Below, piece by piece: positions 8,919 to 56,483 of a stretch of 62,007 nucleotides of DNA. The first letter of the stretch is position 1; each line of letters starts with the position of its first letter. Source of the stretch: an uncultured Candidatus Poseidoniales archaeon. Lineage in GTDB: Archaea > Thermoplasmatota > Poseidoniia > Poseidoniales > Thalassarchaeaceae. The stretch spans positions 1 to 62,007 of the forward strand of contig CACGIM010000003.1 in assembly GCA_902573115.1 (NCBI GenBank), read 5' to 3'. Position numbers and translations under genes: made by a program. A model generated the notes under the pieces. The model saw only the letters and a list, made by a program, of their open reading frames with translations. It did no database searches and had not been told where the DNA came from.

Positions 8919-9123
8919 AAAAATATGAATGCAAATTCCACAATTTACAACAGGATTCATGTACCGCTCCCCCCGTGTTGTTCAAATACCATAGGTTGGT
9001 CGCAAGCCTGCTTTGTGCGCTCTAATAGACTGTCTATTAGGGTAAGTGGTTGAGGTCGCTTCGCCCTGCGGGGAGACGGAGTGGCCTGAGAAACCAGAAT
9101 TGATATGCCTGGACACCAGAGGC

Positions 9124-12061
<2,938 letters not shown>

Positions 12062-12106
12062 TCTCTGTCCAAAAGAGCATATCAATTCACATTCGAAGGA
12101 AGAGTT

Positions 12107-12226
12107 GTGCACGGCCATAGCGGAGGGGTCCTACCCGGTCCCATATCGAACCCGGAAGTCAAGCCCTCCTGCGTCGATTCCGGTACTGTGGTGCGAAAGC
12201 CCACGGGAAAGGTCGTCGCTGTGCCA
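12107..12226 (+). rRNA. rrf: 5S rRNA
   Basis: ggccatagcgg...cccggtcccatatcgaacccggaagtcaagcc; terminal helix gcacggc/gctgtgc. Ends approximate. Confidence 0.95.
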
Positions 12227-12286
12227 CTCTCCTTCACCTCCCCGCAACACATTAACTAGTGACGTTAGTTATGATGGGGTAAGAAG

Positions 12287-30075: not shown

Positions 30076-30161
30076 CGAAATTTCAACCTCACAATTACAA
30101 TAATTATACCTTTCTTGGGACAATTAGCTCTCAAAAACATTTATGTCAAAGTCCGCCAAAG

Positions 30162-30268
30162 GGCTAATGCTCCTAGTTCCCCGAGGAGCACCCACCCCTC
30201 TAGCGGAAGCTCGTCATGGGGAACCTTTTTGAACACCCCTAGGGTCGCAGGAAAGCCCAGCATTAGCC
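30162..30268 (+). ncRNA. Candidate structured RNA of unknown class
   Basis: 10-bp terminal helix ggctaatgct/agcattagcc, internal gttcccc/ggggaac, agc-GGAA-gct tetraloop; ends 2 nt before tRNA-Lys. Confidence 0.45.
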
Positions 30269-30270
30269 AT

Positions 30271-30344
30271 GGGCCTGTAGCTTAGTCAGGTAGAGCGCCG
30301 GGCTTTTAACCCGGTGGCCGGGGGTTCGAATCCCCTCAGGCCCG
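30271..30344 (+). tRNA. tRNA-Lys(UUU)
   Basis: Cloverleaf: gggcctg/caggccc acceptor, ccggg-cTTTtaa-type anticodon arm with TTT, ggttcgaatcc T arm; no intron. Confidence 0.95.
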
Positions 30345-30393
30345 CCTGATAGCTTACCAGGCCCTCGCTTTTCTGGATAAGGGGGAAGCAAAA

Positions 30394-30981
30394 GTGGCAG
30401 TCAAAAGCTCGACCAAAAAAAGACTAATCGAACTAGGAATTCCTGAAGATCACGCACACAAACTCGCGGATGATGCCAACTTGGACACCATTAAAAGAAT
30501 GGCAAGAGAACAAGTCGCAAAGAAGGTCGGTGTCGAGGATGGCTCTGCAGAGCTTGACCTTATTATGTCAGTGATTAGCGAACACGTTGGCTCCAGGAAG
30601 AGGACCAAGAGCAATCGCATCACCATATCTAGAAAAGCGCTGTTGGAAGAGGATATTCCCCGAGGAGAATTCAGGTTTAATGTTTTGAATCACGAACTAG
30701 TACCCCATCATGAGTTAGTTCCAATTGAATCCGAGGCCGATATATTGGAACCATGGGACTTGCGGACAGACGATGCATTCGGAACAGATAGACTTGCTAA
30801 GGAATTACTCCCCAAGATTTTGATAACCGACCCTGCTATCCAAGCTATCAAAGAAATGGAAGAGATAGACAATGAAGAGCTTCCAGCAGGTTGGCTCACC
30901 AATAGAGTTGTAAAAATTGAACGATACAGCAGATCTGCGGGAAGTTCTACCGCATATCGACTAATAGTAGAGAGTACCTGA
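30394..30981 (+). CDS. rpoH: RNA polymerase subunit H (Rpo5) with about 95 aa N-terminal extension
   Basis: FNVLNHELVPHHE, LPKILITDPAI, VVKIERYSRSAG...YRLIV; first gene of the rpo operon. Confidence 0.9.
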   Translation: MAVKSSTKKRLIELGIPEDHAHKLADDANLDTIKRMAREQVAKKVGVEDGSAELDLIMSVISEHVGSRKRTKSNRITISRKALLEEDIPRGEFRFNVLNHELVPHHELVPIESEADILEPWDLRTDDAFGTDRLAKELLPKILITDPAIQAIKEMEEIDNEELPAGWLTNRVVKIERYSRSAGSSTAYRLIVEST

Positions 30982-30992
30982 TCGGAGATGTA

Positions 30993-33900
30993 ATGATGAA
31001 AGAAATAGTAGAGAGTTACTTCAAGCAAAGAAGCCTAGTCAACCATCAGCTGATGTCATACAATGACTGCATACCAGTCGGAGATGGAAAGGAAAGCAGA
31101 ATGGAAAGAATCGTCAGGAATATCAAGATAGGTACTGATGAGAATATGGATGATGATCAGGGAGGCCTAGTTAAACTGGATCTCTTAGACAAAGAAATTG
31201 TAGTCCGACTAAAAAACCTTAGACTCGGAAAACCTACAATAAAGGAGGCAAATGGGGCAGAGCATCCGGCTACGCCATTGGAGTGCAGGCTAAGAAAGCT
31301 GACCTACTTTTCACCGGTATTCCTCGACTTCAAGATTTTCCGAGACGATCTTCCTCCTTCTCCTGGTTCAGAAATGGGCTTCCAAGAGGAGAAGAGTGTT
31401 CACATCGGTAATCTTCCAATAATGGTTAGATCTGCACGATGCAACCTTCATCACAACCATATTGACGAGAATAGTAAGCTATCGCCCGAAACTAACGGAG
31501 AAGACTCTGAAAGATACACAAAACTACTGAGGAAGTCTGGCGAAGATCCATTGGACCCTGGTGGTTATTTCATAATCAACGGAACTGAAAGAGTGCTAAT
31601 CTCAATGGAGGACCTTGCACCTAACAGGGTGACTGTCGAGAAGAACAAGAAATACGCACACGAGACTCAGGTCGCAAAGATATTCTCCCAAAAGGACGGA
31701 GTTAGGAAACCTCTCAATGTCGAGAAAAGAAGGGATGGCATGCTCATGGTCAAGATTCCCAGCGCCGGGACAACACCGGTTCCATTAGTTCTACTAATGA
31801 GAGCTCTCGGTGTGGAGAACGACAGGGAAATTTTTGCCTCTATCGCCGGCCCACCAGAGGCAATGAAATTCACTGTGGCGAATCTAAACGATTTGAGGGA
31901 CAATGAGGAATATGGGGTGGACACTTCCGAAGAGGCTTTAGCATGGCTAGAAAAGAAATTTGCTGCAGGCCAACAGAAAGAATACCGAGAATCTAGAATC
32001 CAGAATCTTCTGGACAACGAGCTCCTGCCTCACTTGGGGTCCGATTTCGATAATCGATTGAAGAAAGCTATTTTCCTTGGTAGAATAGCCAGACAGGTGC
32101 TTGAAATGGCAATCAAGGACAAGGATCCCAATGACAAAGACCACTACGCAAACAAGAGAGTCAGGCTTGCTGGTGATCTGGTTGAGGACCTATTCAGAGT
32201 GAGCCTTCAGCAATTGGCCAGGGATCTAAAGTATCAGCTGGAAAGGCATCACAACAGGAAGAGGGAGCTCAGAATATCCTCCTGCCTGAGGCCAGATGTT
32301 CTCACCACGAAAATCATGCATGCACTGGCAACCGGCAACTGGGTGGGTGGTAGATCAGGAGTTAGTCAACTCCTTGACAGGACAACATACCTATCCGCTC
32401 TTTCACATTTAAGGAGGGTCACTAGCCCCCTTGTTAGGAGCCAGCCACACTTCGAGGCACGTGACCTTCATCCAACTCAATGGGGCAGGTTATGTCCAAA
32501 TGAGACTCCTGAAGGTCAAAATTGTGGTTTAGTGAAGAATGGTGCTCAGATGATAGACGTCTCTGAGGAAGTACCCGAGGTAGATGTGAAGGCACTCCTG
32601 AAAGAAGCAGGAGTAGATGACGATCCAGACGGATGGGCAGACGGTTCGAGGATTCACGTCAATGGTGACATTTTCGGACTGCACAAGAGACCTCACAAGC
32701 TAGTCACTCAGTTCAAAAGAAGACGTAGATCGGGGAGAATTAGACCAGAGGTCAGTGTAAGGCACGACTTGGAGAACAGGGACGTCTACATCAACACAGA
32801 CAGAGGGAGGATGCTAAGGCCACTTCTCATAATTGACCACGGTAGCCTGCAAATTACCAAGATGCACTTGGATGGTCTGCGCAATGGTGAAATTACATTT
32901 TCAGACTTAGTATCTGGCGGAGTTGTTGAGTGGGTCGATGCTGAGGAAGAAGAAGATCTTCTAATTGCGCCAAGGCCTTTTGACCTACCAGCTCTTTCTC
33001 CCAAGCACAAAAGACCGATTAATCCCTCAATGGTGGAATGGACCAACCTTGGTGAGCATGGAATTTCACATGCTAAGTTGCTTGCCGAAGTAAAGATGCC
33101 GAATGGCGAAACCAAGACCGAAAAAATTGAAGTCCCACTAAATTACTATCAAGAAAAAATCGACTCGCTAAAGAGGAAGGAAAAGAAGGCAAACACGGTA
33201 TTAGTTTACACCCACGTAGAGATTGACCCACAGCTCATTTTGGGGGTATGCGCTTCACTTGTCCCTTACCCAGAGCACAACTCAACTCCCAGGGTTACTG
33301 GTGGGACTGCAATGGTCAAGCAGAGCCTTGGAGTATCTTCATCTAACTTCAGATTAAGGCCCGACACAAGGGCACATGTGATGCATTATCCTCAGAGATC
33401 AATCGTTGGAACAAGGGCCATGAAGTCCACTAACTTCGACGAGAGGCCGGGCGGACAGAATCTCGTGGTTGCAATAGTCAGTCACCACGGATACAACATG
33501 CAGGATGCTGTGATAATGAACAGAGCATCTGTGGAGAGGGCAATGGGAAGATCAGCGTTCATCAGGACATACAATGCCGAAAACAAAAGGTTTCCCGGGG
33601 GCCAGGAGGAAAGAATAGAGGTCCCGGGAACAGGGCTTGATGAAATCAAGGGGCTAAAATCATGGGACTCATATTCTCACCTAGAAAGGGACGGACTCCC
33701 CGTTCCTGAGACAGAACTTACTAGCGAAGAGGGAGGAAGGTCAATACTAGTCGGAAAGACAAGCCCCCCTCGATTCCTAGAAGAAGCTCATGGGGCCTTC
33801 CTACAAGCACAAGAAAGAAGGGAATCATCAATGCTTGTTAGGCACGGTGAAAAGGGTTGGGTAGACAATGTATATGTCACAGAATCTCTCGATTCAGGCA

Positions 33901-34688
33901 GACTAGTCAGAATTACTCTAAGAACAAATAAGATTCCGGAGCTCGGGGACAAGTTTGCTAGCAGGCACGGACAAAAAGGAATCATAGGTAGGCTTGTCGA
34001 ACAAGAGGATATGCCATTTACAGAAGATGGGGTGATCCCTGATCTGTTGATTAATCCGCATGCCATACCTTCCCGGATGACAGTCGCTCACGTTCTAGAA
34101 ATGATCGGAGCAAAGGTTGGATCAATGGAAGGTAGGAGAATAGATGGAACGGCTTTTACTGGAGAAAAAGAAGAGTCACTAAGGTCTGGATTATTGAGAT
34201 CTGGATTAAAGCACACAGGAAGAGAATCCATGGTGAATGGAGAAACTGGAGAAGCATTTCCGGTGGATACCTTTGTCGGGGTGATATACTACCAGAGACT
34301 ACATCACCTAGTCAGCAGCAAGCTTCACGCAAGAAGCAGAGGCAGGGTCCAAATCCTTACTAGACAGCCAACTGAGGGAAGGGCTAGACAAGGTGGTCTT
34401 AGATTTGGAGAAATGGAAAGGGACTGCCTCATTTCACATGGTGCGTCAATGGTGATTAAAGACAGATTACTTGATGAATCAGACGGTTGGAATCTAATGG
34501 TATGCAACACCCCACGTTGCGGCCACATTGCCTATTACGATTGGAAGAGGAGGACTAGCGTATGCCCTGTGTGTGGGGATAGGGCAGACGTTCACTCGGT
34601 ACAAACATCTTACGCATTCAAGCTTCTCCTTGATGAGATGAAAAGTCTTGGTGTTGCTATGAGATTAGAACTGGAGGACAGAAGATGA
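30993..34688 (+). CDS. rpoB: RNA polymerase subunit B (unsplit)
   Basis: GGYFIING, ETPEGQNCGL, GDKFASRHGQKG, GLRFGEMERD. Confidence 0.99.
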   Translation: MMKEIVESYFKQRSLVNHQLMSYNDCIPVGDGKESRMERIVRNIKIGTDENMDDDQGGLVKLDLLDKEIVVRLKNLRLGKPTIKEANGAEHPATPLECRLRKLTYFSPVFLDFKIFRDDLPPSPGSEMGFQEEKSVHIGNLPIMVRSARCNLHHNHIDENSKLSPETNGEDSERYTKLLRKSGEDPLDPGGYFIINGTERVLISMEDLAPNRVTVEKNKKYAHETQVAKIFSQKDGVRKPLNVEKRRDGMLMVKIPSAGTTPVPLVLLMRALGVENDREIFASIAGPPEAMKFTVANLNDLRDNEEYGVDTSEEALAWLEKKFAAGQQKEYRESRIQNLLDNELLPHLGSDFDNRLKKAIFLGRIARQVLEMAIKDKDPNDKDHYANKRVRLAGDLVEDLFRVSLQQLARDLKYQLERHHNRKRELRISSCLRPDVLTTKIMHALATGNWVGGRSGVSQLLDRTTYLSALSHLRRVTSPLVRSQPHFEARDLHPTQWGRLCPNETPEGQNCGLVKNGAQMIDVSEEVPEVDVKALLKEAGVDDDPDGWADGSRIHVNGDIFGLHKRPHKLVTQFKRRRRSGRIRPEVSVRHDLENRDVYINTDRGRMLRPLLIIDHGSLQITKMHLDGLRNGEITFSDLVSGGVVEWVDAEEEEDLLIAPRPFDLPALSPKHKRPINPSMVEWTNLGEHGISHAKLLAEVKMPNGETKTEKIEVPLNYYQEKIDSLKRKEKKANTVLVYTHVEIDPQLILGVCASLVPYPEHNSTPRVTGGTAMVKQSLGVSSSNFRLRPDTRAHVMHYPQRSIVGTRAMKSTNFDERPGGQNLVVAIVSHHGYNMQDAVIMNRASVERAMGRSAFIRTYNAENKRFPGGQEERIEVPGTGLDEIKGLKSWDSYSHLERDGLPVPETELTSEEGGRSILVGKTSPPRFLEEAHGAFLQAQERRESSMLVRHGEKGWVDNVYVTESLDSGRLVRITLRTNKIPELGDKFASRHGQKGIIGRLVEQEDMPFTEDGVIPDLLINPHAIPSRMTVAHVLEMIGAKVGSMEGRRIDGTAFTGEKEESLRSGLLRSGLKHTGRESMVNGETGEAFPVDTFVGVIYYQRLHHLVSSKLHARSRGRVQILTRQPTEGRARQGGLRFGEMERDCLISHGASMVIKDRLLDESDGWNLMVCNTPRCGHIAYYDWKRRTSVCPVCGDRADVHSVQTSYAFKLLLDEMKSLGVAMRLELEDRR

Positions 34689-55114: not shown

Positions 55115-56483
55115 AATGGACTGGGATCAAATATTAAGCGACGCAGGGTTATCAAAAAGAGAAGTGGATGCAATAAAGGTTCTATCTAAAAAACCTAATT
55201 TAAAGGCGAGCGAAATAGCAAAGGAACTCGGGACCACTAGGCTAGACGCCTACAAATCTCTCGAGAGATTACAAACCATAGGCGTAGTCACGGTAATCGC
55301 AGACAGACCTATGAGGTTTTACTGCCCCCCAATCAACGAGACGGTCAAGCATCTGATCGAAATTAGAAAGGAGCAATTATCCAGAATCGAAAAGGGATTC
55401 GAGGACCTCCAATCTTCAATTGACAACTCAAACTACACTTTCGACAAGCCAGAAGAGTTGAACAATCCTAAATTCACGATTCTAAAGGAGAGAGTTCACA
55501 TTCTGAATAGGCTGAGTAAGATGGCCGACGAGTCTCAATCAGATTATGTACTGATACTAGGGAGATTCGGAATACTTCCACTGTGTAGGGGCGACTCGCT
55601 GGCAAGCGTTAATGAAGCTGCAAAGAGGGGGGTGAGGGTCCGGGTCTTAGCGCAGTTAGATAAGCGGACAATTCGTTTCTACAAAGAATTGCACGAGACC
55701 GTGGAGGTTAGGCACACAGATGACCTTGATGCTCAAGGGGTCTTGATGGATGAAACCCAAGTGATTCAATACCTTAGCTCAGATGAAAATCCAGTAGGCA
55801 GAGGAAAGAATGAAGCCGCATTAGTTATCGAGTCCAAACAATTCGCTGAGAATCAGAGGAACCTAATTGAGACAATATGGGAAGAAGCAATTCATTTCGA
55901 GTCAGCATCCAGTAGGTTCACCGAACAAAAAATAACGGATCCTCTAAGGCTTACAATAGACCAAGGGTCTTTCCTCGAGAAAATAAGAGAGGTCCTCAAA
56001 ATTGAATCAGACCTTCCAAATGAAGATACGCCATTCAATGCAGAGGCATTCTTAGCATCTGGCTTAGAGATTAGTGACGCGAGGAGGAACCTCCAGGAAG
56101 GTGGAATTTCCAGTCTCAAATCATTCGGTATAGACGTCGTGTCGCTCCTCAGACAGGTAGGGAACAGAGTAGGAGAAGAATTGGCATTTAGCCTGAAGAG
56201 CATAGACCAGGAGATAGAATTCCTAAGTGAGATGATGGATTGGTGGGAATACGCCGGACTGGGTCAACTCAGCTATGAACTAGACCCTAATTTCCACATC
56301 AGAGTAGAATTCATGGAGTGTCCAGAATCAAAGAACCTACCAATCTGGGCTCTAGATGATGGAATCATAGAAGGGGCCCTAAAAGCTCGTTATCCAGACG
56401 GGGGAGACGTGAAGATAAGCAGAGAGGTCATATCAAAGGAACCCGAAGGGTTGCACAGGTATAGTCTAATTATGAGTGAATAA
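55107..56483 (+). CDS. TrmB-family transcriptional regulator
   Basis: N-terminal wHTH (GLSKRE...ASEIAKELG..RLDAY..L..L..G.V), central GVRVRVL PLD-like domain, extra C-terminal domain. Confidence 0.8.
   Translation: MNEMDWDQILSDAGLSKREVDAIKVLSKKPNLKASEIAKELGTTRLDAYKSLERLQTIGVVTVIADRPMRFYCPPINETVKHLIEIRKEQLSRIEKGFEDLQSSIDNSNYTFDKPEELNNPKFTILKERVHILNRLSKMADESQSDYVLILGRFGILPLCRGDSLASVNEAAKRGVRVRVLAQLDKRTIRFYKELHETVEVRHTDDLDAQGVLMDETQVIQYLSSDENPVGRGKNEAALVIESKQFAENQRNLIETIWEEAIHFESASSRFTEQKITDPLRLTIDQGSFLEKIREVLKIESDLPNEDTPFNAEAFLASGLEISDARRNLQEGGISSLKSFGIDVVSLLRQVGNRVGEELAFSLKSIDQEIEFLSEMMDWWEYAGLGQLSYELDPNFHIRVEFMECPESKNLPIWALDDGIIEGALKARYPDGGDVKISREVISKEPEGLHRYSLIMSE

Follow-up and report, generated by a model that had tools for sequence, protein, structure and literature searches.

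A probable tandem-promoter control region with a conserved hairpin RNA upstream of tRNA-Lys and the RNA polymerase genes in Marine Group II archaea

The stretch at positions 30076-30270 (plus strand) of a 62,007-nucleotide (nt) DNA sequence, called the window below, lies directly upstream of a gene for tRNA-Lys(UUU), behind which the genes of an RNA polymerase operon follow. In a preliminary description it had been proposed to encode a single structured non-coding RNA (ncRNA) of about 110 nt whose 3' end lies 2 nt short of the tRNA. Comparison with about 90 related loci suggests a different architecture: the region very probably holds a tandem-promoter control region with a 5'-hairpin RNA in place of a closed 110-nt ncRNA. 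As an element it is real and conserved, and still unclassified. A function of the hairpin RNA as an anti-Shine-Dalgarno leader or small RNA (sRNA) for the RNA polymerase operon is put forward tentatively as the favoured reading, a serious possibility that falls short of being probable. The preliminary description is supported in part: a conserved, plus-strand, non-coding and unclassified RNA element does lie here, probably behind a promoter and physically linked to tRNA-Lys, but the closing-helix architecture that it drew did not survive comparison.

The window is archaeal. It carries large-subunit (LSU) rRNA and 5S rRNA at 9149-12227 and its sole tRNA is tRNA-Lys(UUU). The host lineage, Marine Group II (MGII), is one of the most abundant groups of uncultured microbes in ocean surface waters, and the comparison of loci was extended through its class. 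A DNA search recovered the stretch upstream of tRNA-Lys(UUU) from about 29 of the 36 genomes belonging to this genus. When the tRNA itself served as the seed, the locus was also located in another 11 genera of the family and, beyond these, in the sister family and in sister orders within the class. The genus alignment comprised 29 sequences, folding of hairpins over the family was done on 53 distinct sequences, and pairing was tested on 50 cluster representatives with 5000 permutations.

Two probable promoters in tandem

The best-conserved feature of the 5' half of the stretch is an A-rich run resembling a transcription factor B recognition element (BRE), followed by a TATA box (caaaaaCATTTATGtc, 30133-30147, plus strand). 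The genus consensus of this site, P1, is (C/T)RA(A/C)AAC(A/C)TTTAT, in which TTTAT and the flanking A's that precede it are invariant in all 29 sequences. The sequence tttatgt at 30140-30146 had been noted before as a weak TATA-like site; the site is real, but the invariance of TTTAT and of the A-rich BRE shows that "weak" was the wrong word. Counted from the tRNA, P1 is at -127 to -140 in 10 of the 12 genera of the family (g1, g8, g10, g12-g16, g18 and g19) and is also seen in several sister-family loci. The 0.98-Mb genome has just four occurrences of the motif RAAMMTTTAT. The window holds a second copy of the P1-type motif (agaacCTTTATtg, 55170-55185, minus strand), which lies inside overlapping plus-strand coding sequence and was taken as chance.

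The element (G/A)AAGG at 30158-30162 (plus strand), 18-22 nt after the first T of the P1 TATA box, has its AA conserved in at least 90% of the genus alignment. It is probably a promoter-proximal element, and P2, described below, has GGTCG at the equivalent offset. The start positions of both promoters were deduced from TATA spacing: at the usual archaeal TATA-to-start distance, transcription from P1 is predicted to begin at 30164-30169 (plus strand), and in the relatives the TATA-like boxes of apparently leaderless neighbouring genes lie 24-29 nt from the ATG. Judged on these sequence features, P1 is an archaeal BRE/TATA promoter in the plus orientation.

A second site, P2 (ggggaacCTTTTTGAAc, 30218-30234, plus strand), again consists of a BRE-like sequence and a TATA-type box. 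In the order-wide alignment CCTTTTTGAAC (30224-30234) is in register with the sister-family TATA boxes TATAAGAA, TATATCAA, TTTATGAA and TTTAATAA, each of which is preceded by a BRE-like sequence of the GAAAC or GAAGCC type. The P2 box is of the same kind as those found 31-38 nt before other tRNA genes and the LSU rRNA in this genome, and it is kept in genera that have no P1. It is followed, about 17-21 nt after the TATA box, by the GGTCGG-type element GGGTCGC (30242-30248, plus strand), which is conserved order-wide (alignment A5), and then by AGCCCA(G/A) and a leader of 12-17 nt. GTCGG or GTCGC is also present about 18 nt after a TATA-type box in the promoters of tRNA-Gln(CUG) (C9) and LSU rRNA (~8990-9000), and may be a lineage-specific promoter-proximal element of stable-RNA promoters. 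Because P2 is aligned with canonical TATA boxes and resembles other stable-RNA promoters, it is read from its sequence as the ordinary promoter of tRNA-Lys.

P1 and P2 are 86 bp apart in the window, both on the plus strand and in tandem; BRE/TATA sequence features and conservation were found for both, and their start sites are predicted. A scan for sigma-70 promoters and intrinsic terminators returned one weak promoter-like site outside the region and no terminator, a scan that is not informative for an archaeon.

The presence of P2 inside the stretch bears directly on the single RNA of about 110 nt. All the helices listed for that RNA are present in the window. The 10-mer ggctaatgct (30162-30171) is the exact reverse complement of agcattagcc (30259-30268), and gttcccc (30176-30182) is complementary to ggggaac (30218-30224); the first was thought to close the RNA and the second to form an inner helix, or a pseudoknot or conformational switch, with release by RNase P. 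The corresponding 121-nt stretch has a minimum free energy of -44.7 kcal/mol (z = -2.8 against dinucleotide shuffles, plus strand), and by our own estimate a perfect 10-mer complement would be expected by chance within 130 nt only about 0.006 times. In the genus alignment, however, 46.5% of cells are paired for the 10-bp helix and 40.7% for the 7-bp helix, and neither scores better than shuffles or slid partners. The whole proposed structure is 48.1% paired, compared with 48.7% in shuffles, and shows no excess of covariation. The two helices, or a pseudoknot built on them, are not kept in the relatives.

Nor does the position of the strands favour such an RNA. In the 10-bp helix, part of the 5' strand precedes the predicted P1 start, and the 3' strand coincides with the initiator and leader of P2, which are conserved for other reasons. 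The 3' 45 nt of the stretch are 84-94% identical within the genus, and this best-conserved part is the tRNA's own BRE and TATA box, promoter-proximal element, initiator and 12-17-nt leader and not an RNA structure; the most conserved part of a candidate ncRNA can thus be a promoter and a processing helix. The outer part of the 10-bp helix carries two compensatory changes in one relative (L027). The single closed RNA is considered very unlikely, having been largely refuted by comparison. The 10-bp complement, improbable by chance though unconserved in the genus, may reflect a contact, confined to one clade, of the P2 leader with the 5' end of the P1 RNA. RNase P could still free read-through transcripts by cutting where the tRNA begins.

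It had also been suggested that the element belongs to the other strand and controls the divergent HemK-BirA gene, as a 5' untranslated region, an operator or a small open reading frame (ORF). The minus strand of the 121-nt stretch does fold equally well (z = -2.7), and an ORF of 40 amino acids crosses the region on the minus strand in the window. However, this frame stops after 18 amino acids in many relatives and has lost its start in others. The HemK-BirA gene has a TATA-like box of its own about 27-29 nt before the ATG (relatives, by eye), suggesting a leaderless mRNA, and the BRE-TATA orientation, fixed distance and conservation of the element are tied to the tRNA and not to the upstream gene. 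A minus-strand element is extremely improbable on this evidence. A small protein or leader peptide was likewise rejected, since the minus-strand frame is broken in most relatives and the plus-strand frames are inconsistent (by eye). Between P1 and P2 no plus-strand ORF is conserved in the aligned relatives, the ATG frames, inspected by eye, varying in frame and length or being absent, and the P1-P2 RNA is read as non-coding.

The predicted inter-promoter RNA and the tRNA-Lys-rpoH linkage

The RNA predicted to start at P1 would begin with a hairpin, hairpin A (30168-30190, plus strand), whose stem is formed by tgctcct (30168-30174) and aggagca (30184-30190) around a C-rich loop (30175-30183) with UUCCCC (30177-30182) as the proposed anti-Shine-Dalgarno core. 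This is the hairpin that had been offered as an alternative fold of the single RNA, and it proved to be the element that is conserved across the family. When each of the 53 distinct family sequences was folded, a hairpin beginning 29-33 nt after the P1 TATA box was found in most of them. The stems, of 5-12 bp, are unrelated in sequence (GCUCCU/AGGAGC, GUACCGG/CCGGUAC, GCUCCAC/GUGGAGC, GCGGUUCC/GGAACUGC, UCGCCUCGG/CCGGGGUGA and others) while the loop is C-rich throughout (UUCCCC, CUUCCUCC, CUCCCC, GCCCCC and others). Local folding around hairpin A gave a mean z of -1.31 against dinucleotide shuffles (61 distinct sequences).

Hairpin A is followed by a variable second hairpin domain, CCCC...AGC-GGAA-GCU...GGGG (30195-30221, plus strand), which contains the GGAA-capped mini-stem agc-GGAA-gct at 30202-30211. 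Every relative has one or two stable hairpins here, their shape depending on the lineage. Within the genus a GC-GNRA-GC cap is kept in most sequences, its two pairs being standard in 24-26 of the 29. The ggggaac at 30218-30224 is specific to this window and is not kept in the relatives; it resembles the Shine-Dalgarno sequence of rpoH (GGGGGAAG) and could compete for the hairpin loop in this species. In most genera of the family the second domain ends as a stem and 4-6 U that overlap the P2 TATA box. The T-run at 30226-30230 within P2 could also terminate P1 transcripts, and the stem and U-run before P2 are a possible, though not universal, termination site.

The tRNA-Lys(UUU) gene (30271-30346, plus strand; ARAGORN, and Rfam RF00005 at 75.4 bits) encodes its 3' CC. 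The predicted P2 start and the 5' leader of the pre-tRNA (aGCCCAGCAUUAGCCAU) occupy 30254-30270 (plus strand), and the AGCCCA(G/A) in them is nearly invariant order-wide. The trailer (30345-30376, plus strand) contains a hairpin (CCUG 30345-30348 with CAGG 30358-30361), a U-run (30369-30372) and CUGG (30373-30376), and the pattern CCUGA..UCAGG-CnCGSUUUUUCUGGG is kept across the family.

The leader GCCCAG (30255-30260) is complementary to CUGGGC just upstream of the rpoH Shine-Dalgarno sequence. In this window the leader-trailer helix has just 4 bp, CCAG with CUGG. Elsewhere the two strands change together: GCCCAG with CTGGGC, GGCCCAG with CTGGGCC, ATAGCCCAG with CTGGGCTAT, TCACCAA with TTGGTGA (g16), CCCAC with GTGGG (g8) and CCAGCA with TGCTGG (g10 and g18); L024 and L004 likewise carry compensatory variants. 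The permutation test for this pairing gave p = 0.0002. In the sister order a 12-14-bp helix stands at the same place. In one of its genera the helix is perfect over 12-14 bp, with 14 bp the longest (CTCCAGCGTGTCGG with CCGACACGCTGGAG), and its trailer strand begins at the 3' CC of the tRNA; a second genus has a different sequence in the same place with 10 of 12 positions paired (L110, G184:C95; also L113 and L114). With both complementarity and compensatory change found, the leader-trailer helix is read as a clamp around tRNA-Lys.

Four genomes of one genus of the family (L076, L077, L078 and L086) have tRNA-Lys(CUU) and tRNA-Lys(UUU) in tandem, 72 nt apart and each behind CCGTTGTAATTATAG, followed by an unrelated gene and not by rpoH.

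In the window the tRNA is followed by rpoH (30394-30981, plus strand; Pfam Rpb5_C, E 2e-13) and rpoB (30993-34688, plus strand; Pfam Rpb2 domains 1-7), giving the predicted transcription unit tRNA-Lys(UUU)-rpoH-rpoB-rpoA'-rpoA''. The preliminary description had spoken of a co-transcribed RNA linked to tRNA-Lys; the physical linkage stands, but the RNA polymerase operon downstream had been overlooked. In all 77 scorable loci of the order rpoH, first in the series rpoH-rpoB-rpoA, starts 45-60 nt after the tRNA, and its N-terminus MAVKSSTKKRL was kept in all 77 that were scored. The linkage is also present in the sister-order loci with a readable downstream frame. In sister-order loci L108-L119 rpoH lacks the extra N-terminal domain, and in the sister orders the distance from the tRNA to the rpoH start is about 40-45 nt in one sister family but about 195 nt in another.

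The spacer between tRNA and rpoH consists of four parts: the hairpin CCUGA..UCAGG, the U-run, CUGGG(C) and a G-rich Shine-Dalgarno sequence, a G-run being found 6-13 nt before the rpoH start at all loci. No A/T-rich box is present in the sister-family spacer. As the 47-nt spacer contains a Shine-Dalgarno sequence and has no room for a TATA box at the right distance, rpoH is most likely transcribed through tRNA-Lys.

Proposed pairing of the hairpin loop with the rpoH ribosome-binding site

In this window the hairpin A loop UUCCCC (30177-30182) is complementary to GGGGAA (30382-30387) in the G-rich Shine-Dalgarno region of rpoH (GGGGGAAG, 30381-30388, plus strand), its proposed target. When the P1-P2 RNA was compared with the rpoH initiation region, the longest Watson-Crick match fell, in most loci of the family, on the hairpin A loop and on positions -11 to -18 before the start; matches of 6-12 nt occur at these same two places in most family loci. 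The matches are partly lineage-specific: CTTCCCCCGG with CCGGGGGAAG (10 nt), CTCCCGGGG with CCCCGGGAG (9 nt), CCCGAACTC with GAGTTCGGG (9 nt), CCCCCCTA with TAGGGGGG (8 nt) and ATTCCC with GGGAAT, and in the sister family CACACCCTCACC with GGTGAGGGTGTG (12 nt) and CCACAC with GTGTGG.

These observations were put to the permutation test. Cognate pairs had a run length of 5.62, compared with 4.95 ± 0.14 for permuted pairs, and none of the 5000 permutations reached the cognate value; by duplex energy p was 0.004. Four control pairs of regions with the same phylogeny were null by run length (p = 0.55, 0.65, 0.96 and 0.13). The 3' end of the 16S rRNA is canonical (GAUCACCUCCU) and the usual Shine-Dalgarno words of the genome are GAGGT, GGTGA and AGGTG. 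The rpoH Shine-Dalgarno sequence is off-consensus, its 3' flank (AAG) fitting the hairpin loop and not the 16S 3' end. An unpaired segment complementary to the Shine-Dalgarno sequence of the target is thus present, and the complementarity is kept by co-variation, the effect size being small. An alternative suggested by RNAalifold, pairing of the C-rich loop with GGAGG near P2, was rejected (run length, p = 0.55; energy, weak, p = 0.014).

The following mechanism may be envisaged. A transcript from P1 would start at about 30164-30169, with hairpin A first and the variable hairpin domain after it, and one from P2 would start at about 30254 with (A)GCCCAG, its 5' end pairing with the trailer and so clamping the tRNA. 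Pairing of the C-rich loop with the rpoH Shine-Dalgarno sequence would mask the ribosome-binding site, either in cis on P1 read-through transcripts or in trans through an RNA of about 60 nt ending at the T-run that doubles as the P2 TATA box. P1-derived RNA would in this way lower or time translation of the first RNA polymerase gene, though the effect might be one of protection and not of repression, and P2 transcripts would be free of the mask.

Several points weigh against this anti-Shine-Dalgarno function. The evidence for the stem of hairpin A is per-sequence folding, the MAFFT alignment being one column out of register; a covariation count on that alignment was uninformative, as a slide of +1 scored best, and re-alignment again misaligned 12 hairpins. 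A covariance model built from 8 hairpin seeds was too specific and recovered near-identical hairpins only. The complementarity is largely that of a C-run with a G-run, and the cognate advantage, though real, is small, at about 0.65 bp or 1 kcal/mol. The match in this window is just 6 bp, and pairing is poor in the L005/L013/L014/L015 group, in g11 and g17 and in part of the sister family. One control, hairpin A with the P2-proximal region, gave p = 0.014 by duplex energy while being null by run length. Pairing with the loop places rpoH only 84th among the 1290 candidate initiation regions of the genome, so specificity would have to come from linkage. Excision of the tRNA would sever the cis link between mask and target. 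Finally, the two start sites, the point at which the P1 RNA ends and the co-transcription of rpoH are all predicted.

Some of these points suit a rival explanation, in which there are only tandem promoters: P1 would be a second, differently regulated promoter for tRNA-Lys and the rpo genes, comparable to the tandem promoters known from stable-RNA operons, and the P1-P2 RNA a long leader removed by RNase P, with the 5' hairpin stabilising the end or aiding folding or processing and the Shine-Dalgarno match a by-product of C-rich and G-rich composition. Conservation of both promoters agrees with this, as do the structural variability of the second domain, the small cognate advantage of loop and Shine-Dalgarno sequence, the many initiation regions of the genome that pair with the loop as well as or better than rpoH, and the several lineages without a good match. 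It does not account for a loop that stays C-rich over two families while the stems change freely, or for lineage-specific matches outside the C-run that reach 9-12 nt (L018, L082 and L105), and the signal is specific to the pair of hairpin A and Shine-Dalgarno sequence, the four equally related controls being null by run length. We hold this explanation to be rather doubtful, though well worth keeping in mind.

The loop might instead belong to an independent trans-acting sRNA of about 60 nt, made from P1 and ending at the T-run before P2, which would seed on many G-rich ribosome-binding sites or on other targets and for which the position beside tRNA-Lys and rpoH would be mere linkage. Such an RNA would have its own strong promoter, and a stem and U-run at the end of the inter-promoter RNA in most genera of the family (U6 in L090); many G-rich initiation regions pair with the loop as well as that of rpoH does. 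Archaeal precedents for masking of ribosome-binding sites exist in Methanosarcina mazei sRNA41 and sRNA154 (PMC5867862). Against it, the T-run has just 4-5 T at most loci, and g10, g11, g14 and the greater part of the sister family have none. The loop also co-varies with the Shine-Dalgarno sequence of the rpoH to which it is linked, and across the order the element keeps a fixed position with respect to the tRNA. An independent sRNA thus seems unlikely.

If hairpin A is indeed an anti-Shine-Dalgarno element of the operon, RNA may tune the synthesis of polymerase in abundant marine archaea. A wider version, that throughout the class polymerase synthesis is wired to a tRNA-containing leader, with the choice between P1 and P2 or the excision of the tRNA acting as a feedback or growth-rate switch and the MGII ncRNA Tan1 (see below) as a possible precursor, is speculative and would be surprising.

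Known systems and RNA families

C-rich loops (UCCC/CCCC) that bind G-rich Shine-Dalgarno sequences are known from the Staphylococcus aureus RNAIII hairpins and RsaE/RoxS. As proposed for hairpin A, a hairpin there presents an unpaired C-rich motif to G-rich ribosome-binding sites, but those RNAs are bacterial, serve trans-acting regulons and have no sequence relationship to the present element, for which the target is linked. C-rich-loop sRNAs are common in bacteria, and so are cis-acting anti-Shine-Dalgarno leaders, such as RNA thermometers and the expression platforms of riboswitches. These leaders too sequester the Shine-Dalgarno sequence with an upstream segment of the same transcript, whereas here the mask would be about 200 nt from its target with a complete tRNA in between, would be carried on P1 transcripts only, and has no evident ligand or temperature logic.

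The thrU-tyrU-glyT-thrT-tufB operon of Escherichia coli is a mixed tRNA-mRNA operon, in which tRNA genes are transcribed together with a downstream gene for part of the expression machinery and the tRNAs are cut out by RNase P and 3' processing. The present locus differs in being archaeal, in having a single tRNA and RNA polymerase subunits downstream, and in its class-wide linkage. Archaeal rRNA and tRNA precursors have leader-trailer processing stems that serve as bulge-helix-bulge substrates, in which pairing of leader and trailer clamps a stable RNA; by pairing alone, GCCCAG/CUGGGC and the 14-bp helix of the sister order are similar. In the family, however, the helix is short and its 3' strand adjoins the ribosome-binding site of an mRNA.

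Methanosarcina mazei sRNA41 and sRNA154, which are archaeal ncRNAs with anti-ribosome-binding-site sequence that act on translation initiation of (polycistronic) mRNA, come close to the proposed function (review, PMC5867862). They are unlinked, trans-acting and nitrogen-responsive, whereas hairpin A would lie in the same transcription unit as its proposed RNA polymerase target, upstream of a tRNA embedded in the leader. Tan1 is an abundant, highly expressed and unclassified ncRNA of 229 nt from MGII for which no function is known (Hou et al. 2016, PMC5069720). It comes from Thalassoarchaea-type MGII, and its length, the only point compared, is close to the distance of about 225-230 nt from the predicted P1 start to the rpoH start. 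Its authors mention no tRNA inside Tan1 (PMC5069720). That Tan1 is made from this locus is no more than a lead.

A literature search returned no description of this combination of features, of an RNA polymerase operon as the target, of a tRNA between mask and target, or of such class-wide conservation. To our knowledge, little is known of what sets RNA polymerase levels in archaea. Three features would each be new: that tRNA-Lys(UUU) is linked to the polymerase operon throughout the class, that the leader of the operon holds a clamped tRNA, and that the loop of a conserved hairpin upstream follows the operon's ribosome-binding site. Together they make a concrete, testable model in which the transcription machinery is under post-transcriptional control. 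A further yield of the locus is an unclassified RNA element suitable for Rfam modelling.

The preliminary description had matched the element to no known RNA class, and this was borne out. Rfam 15 was searched both at gathering thresholds and at E <= 10 with permissive filters; no family was found at 30076-30270, and the tRNA alone scores. A C/D box sRNA was rejected because the C box RUGAUGA and D box CUGA are absent from the plus strand of the window and the relatives, read directly. An H/ACA sRNA was rejected as well, there being no ANA or ACA box after any conserved stem and hairpin A having a simple loop without an internal pocket. The sequence AGGAAAGCCC resembles the conserved region CR-I of RNase P RNA, but the full RNase P RNA of this genome (237 bits) is encoded elsewhere, at C1:78277-78568 (plus strand), and full copies were also found in 46 of 61 relatives; with no match to RF00373 here, RNase P RNA was rejected as the identity of the element. 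The tRNA-Lys(CUU) gene of the genome (G000 C1:77373-77449, minus strand) lies about 830 nt from this RNase P RNA gene, and the same neighbourhood is repeated in at least one relative (G032:C19).

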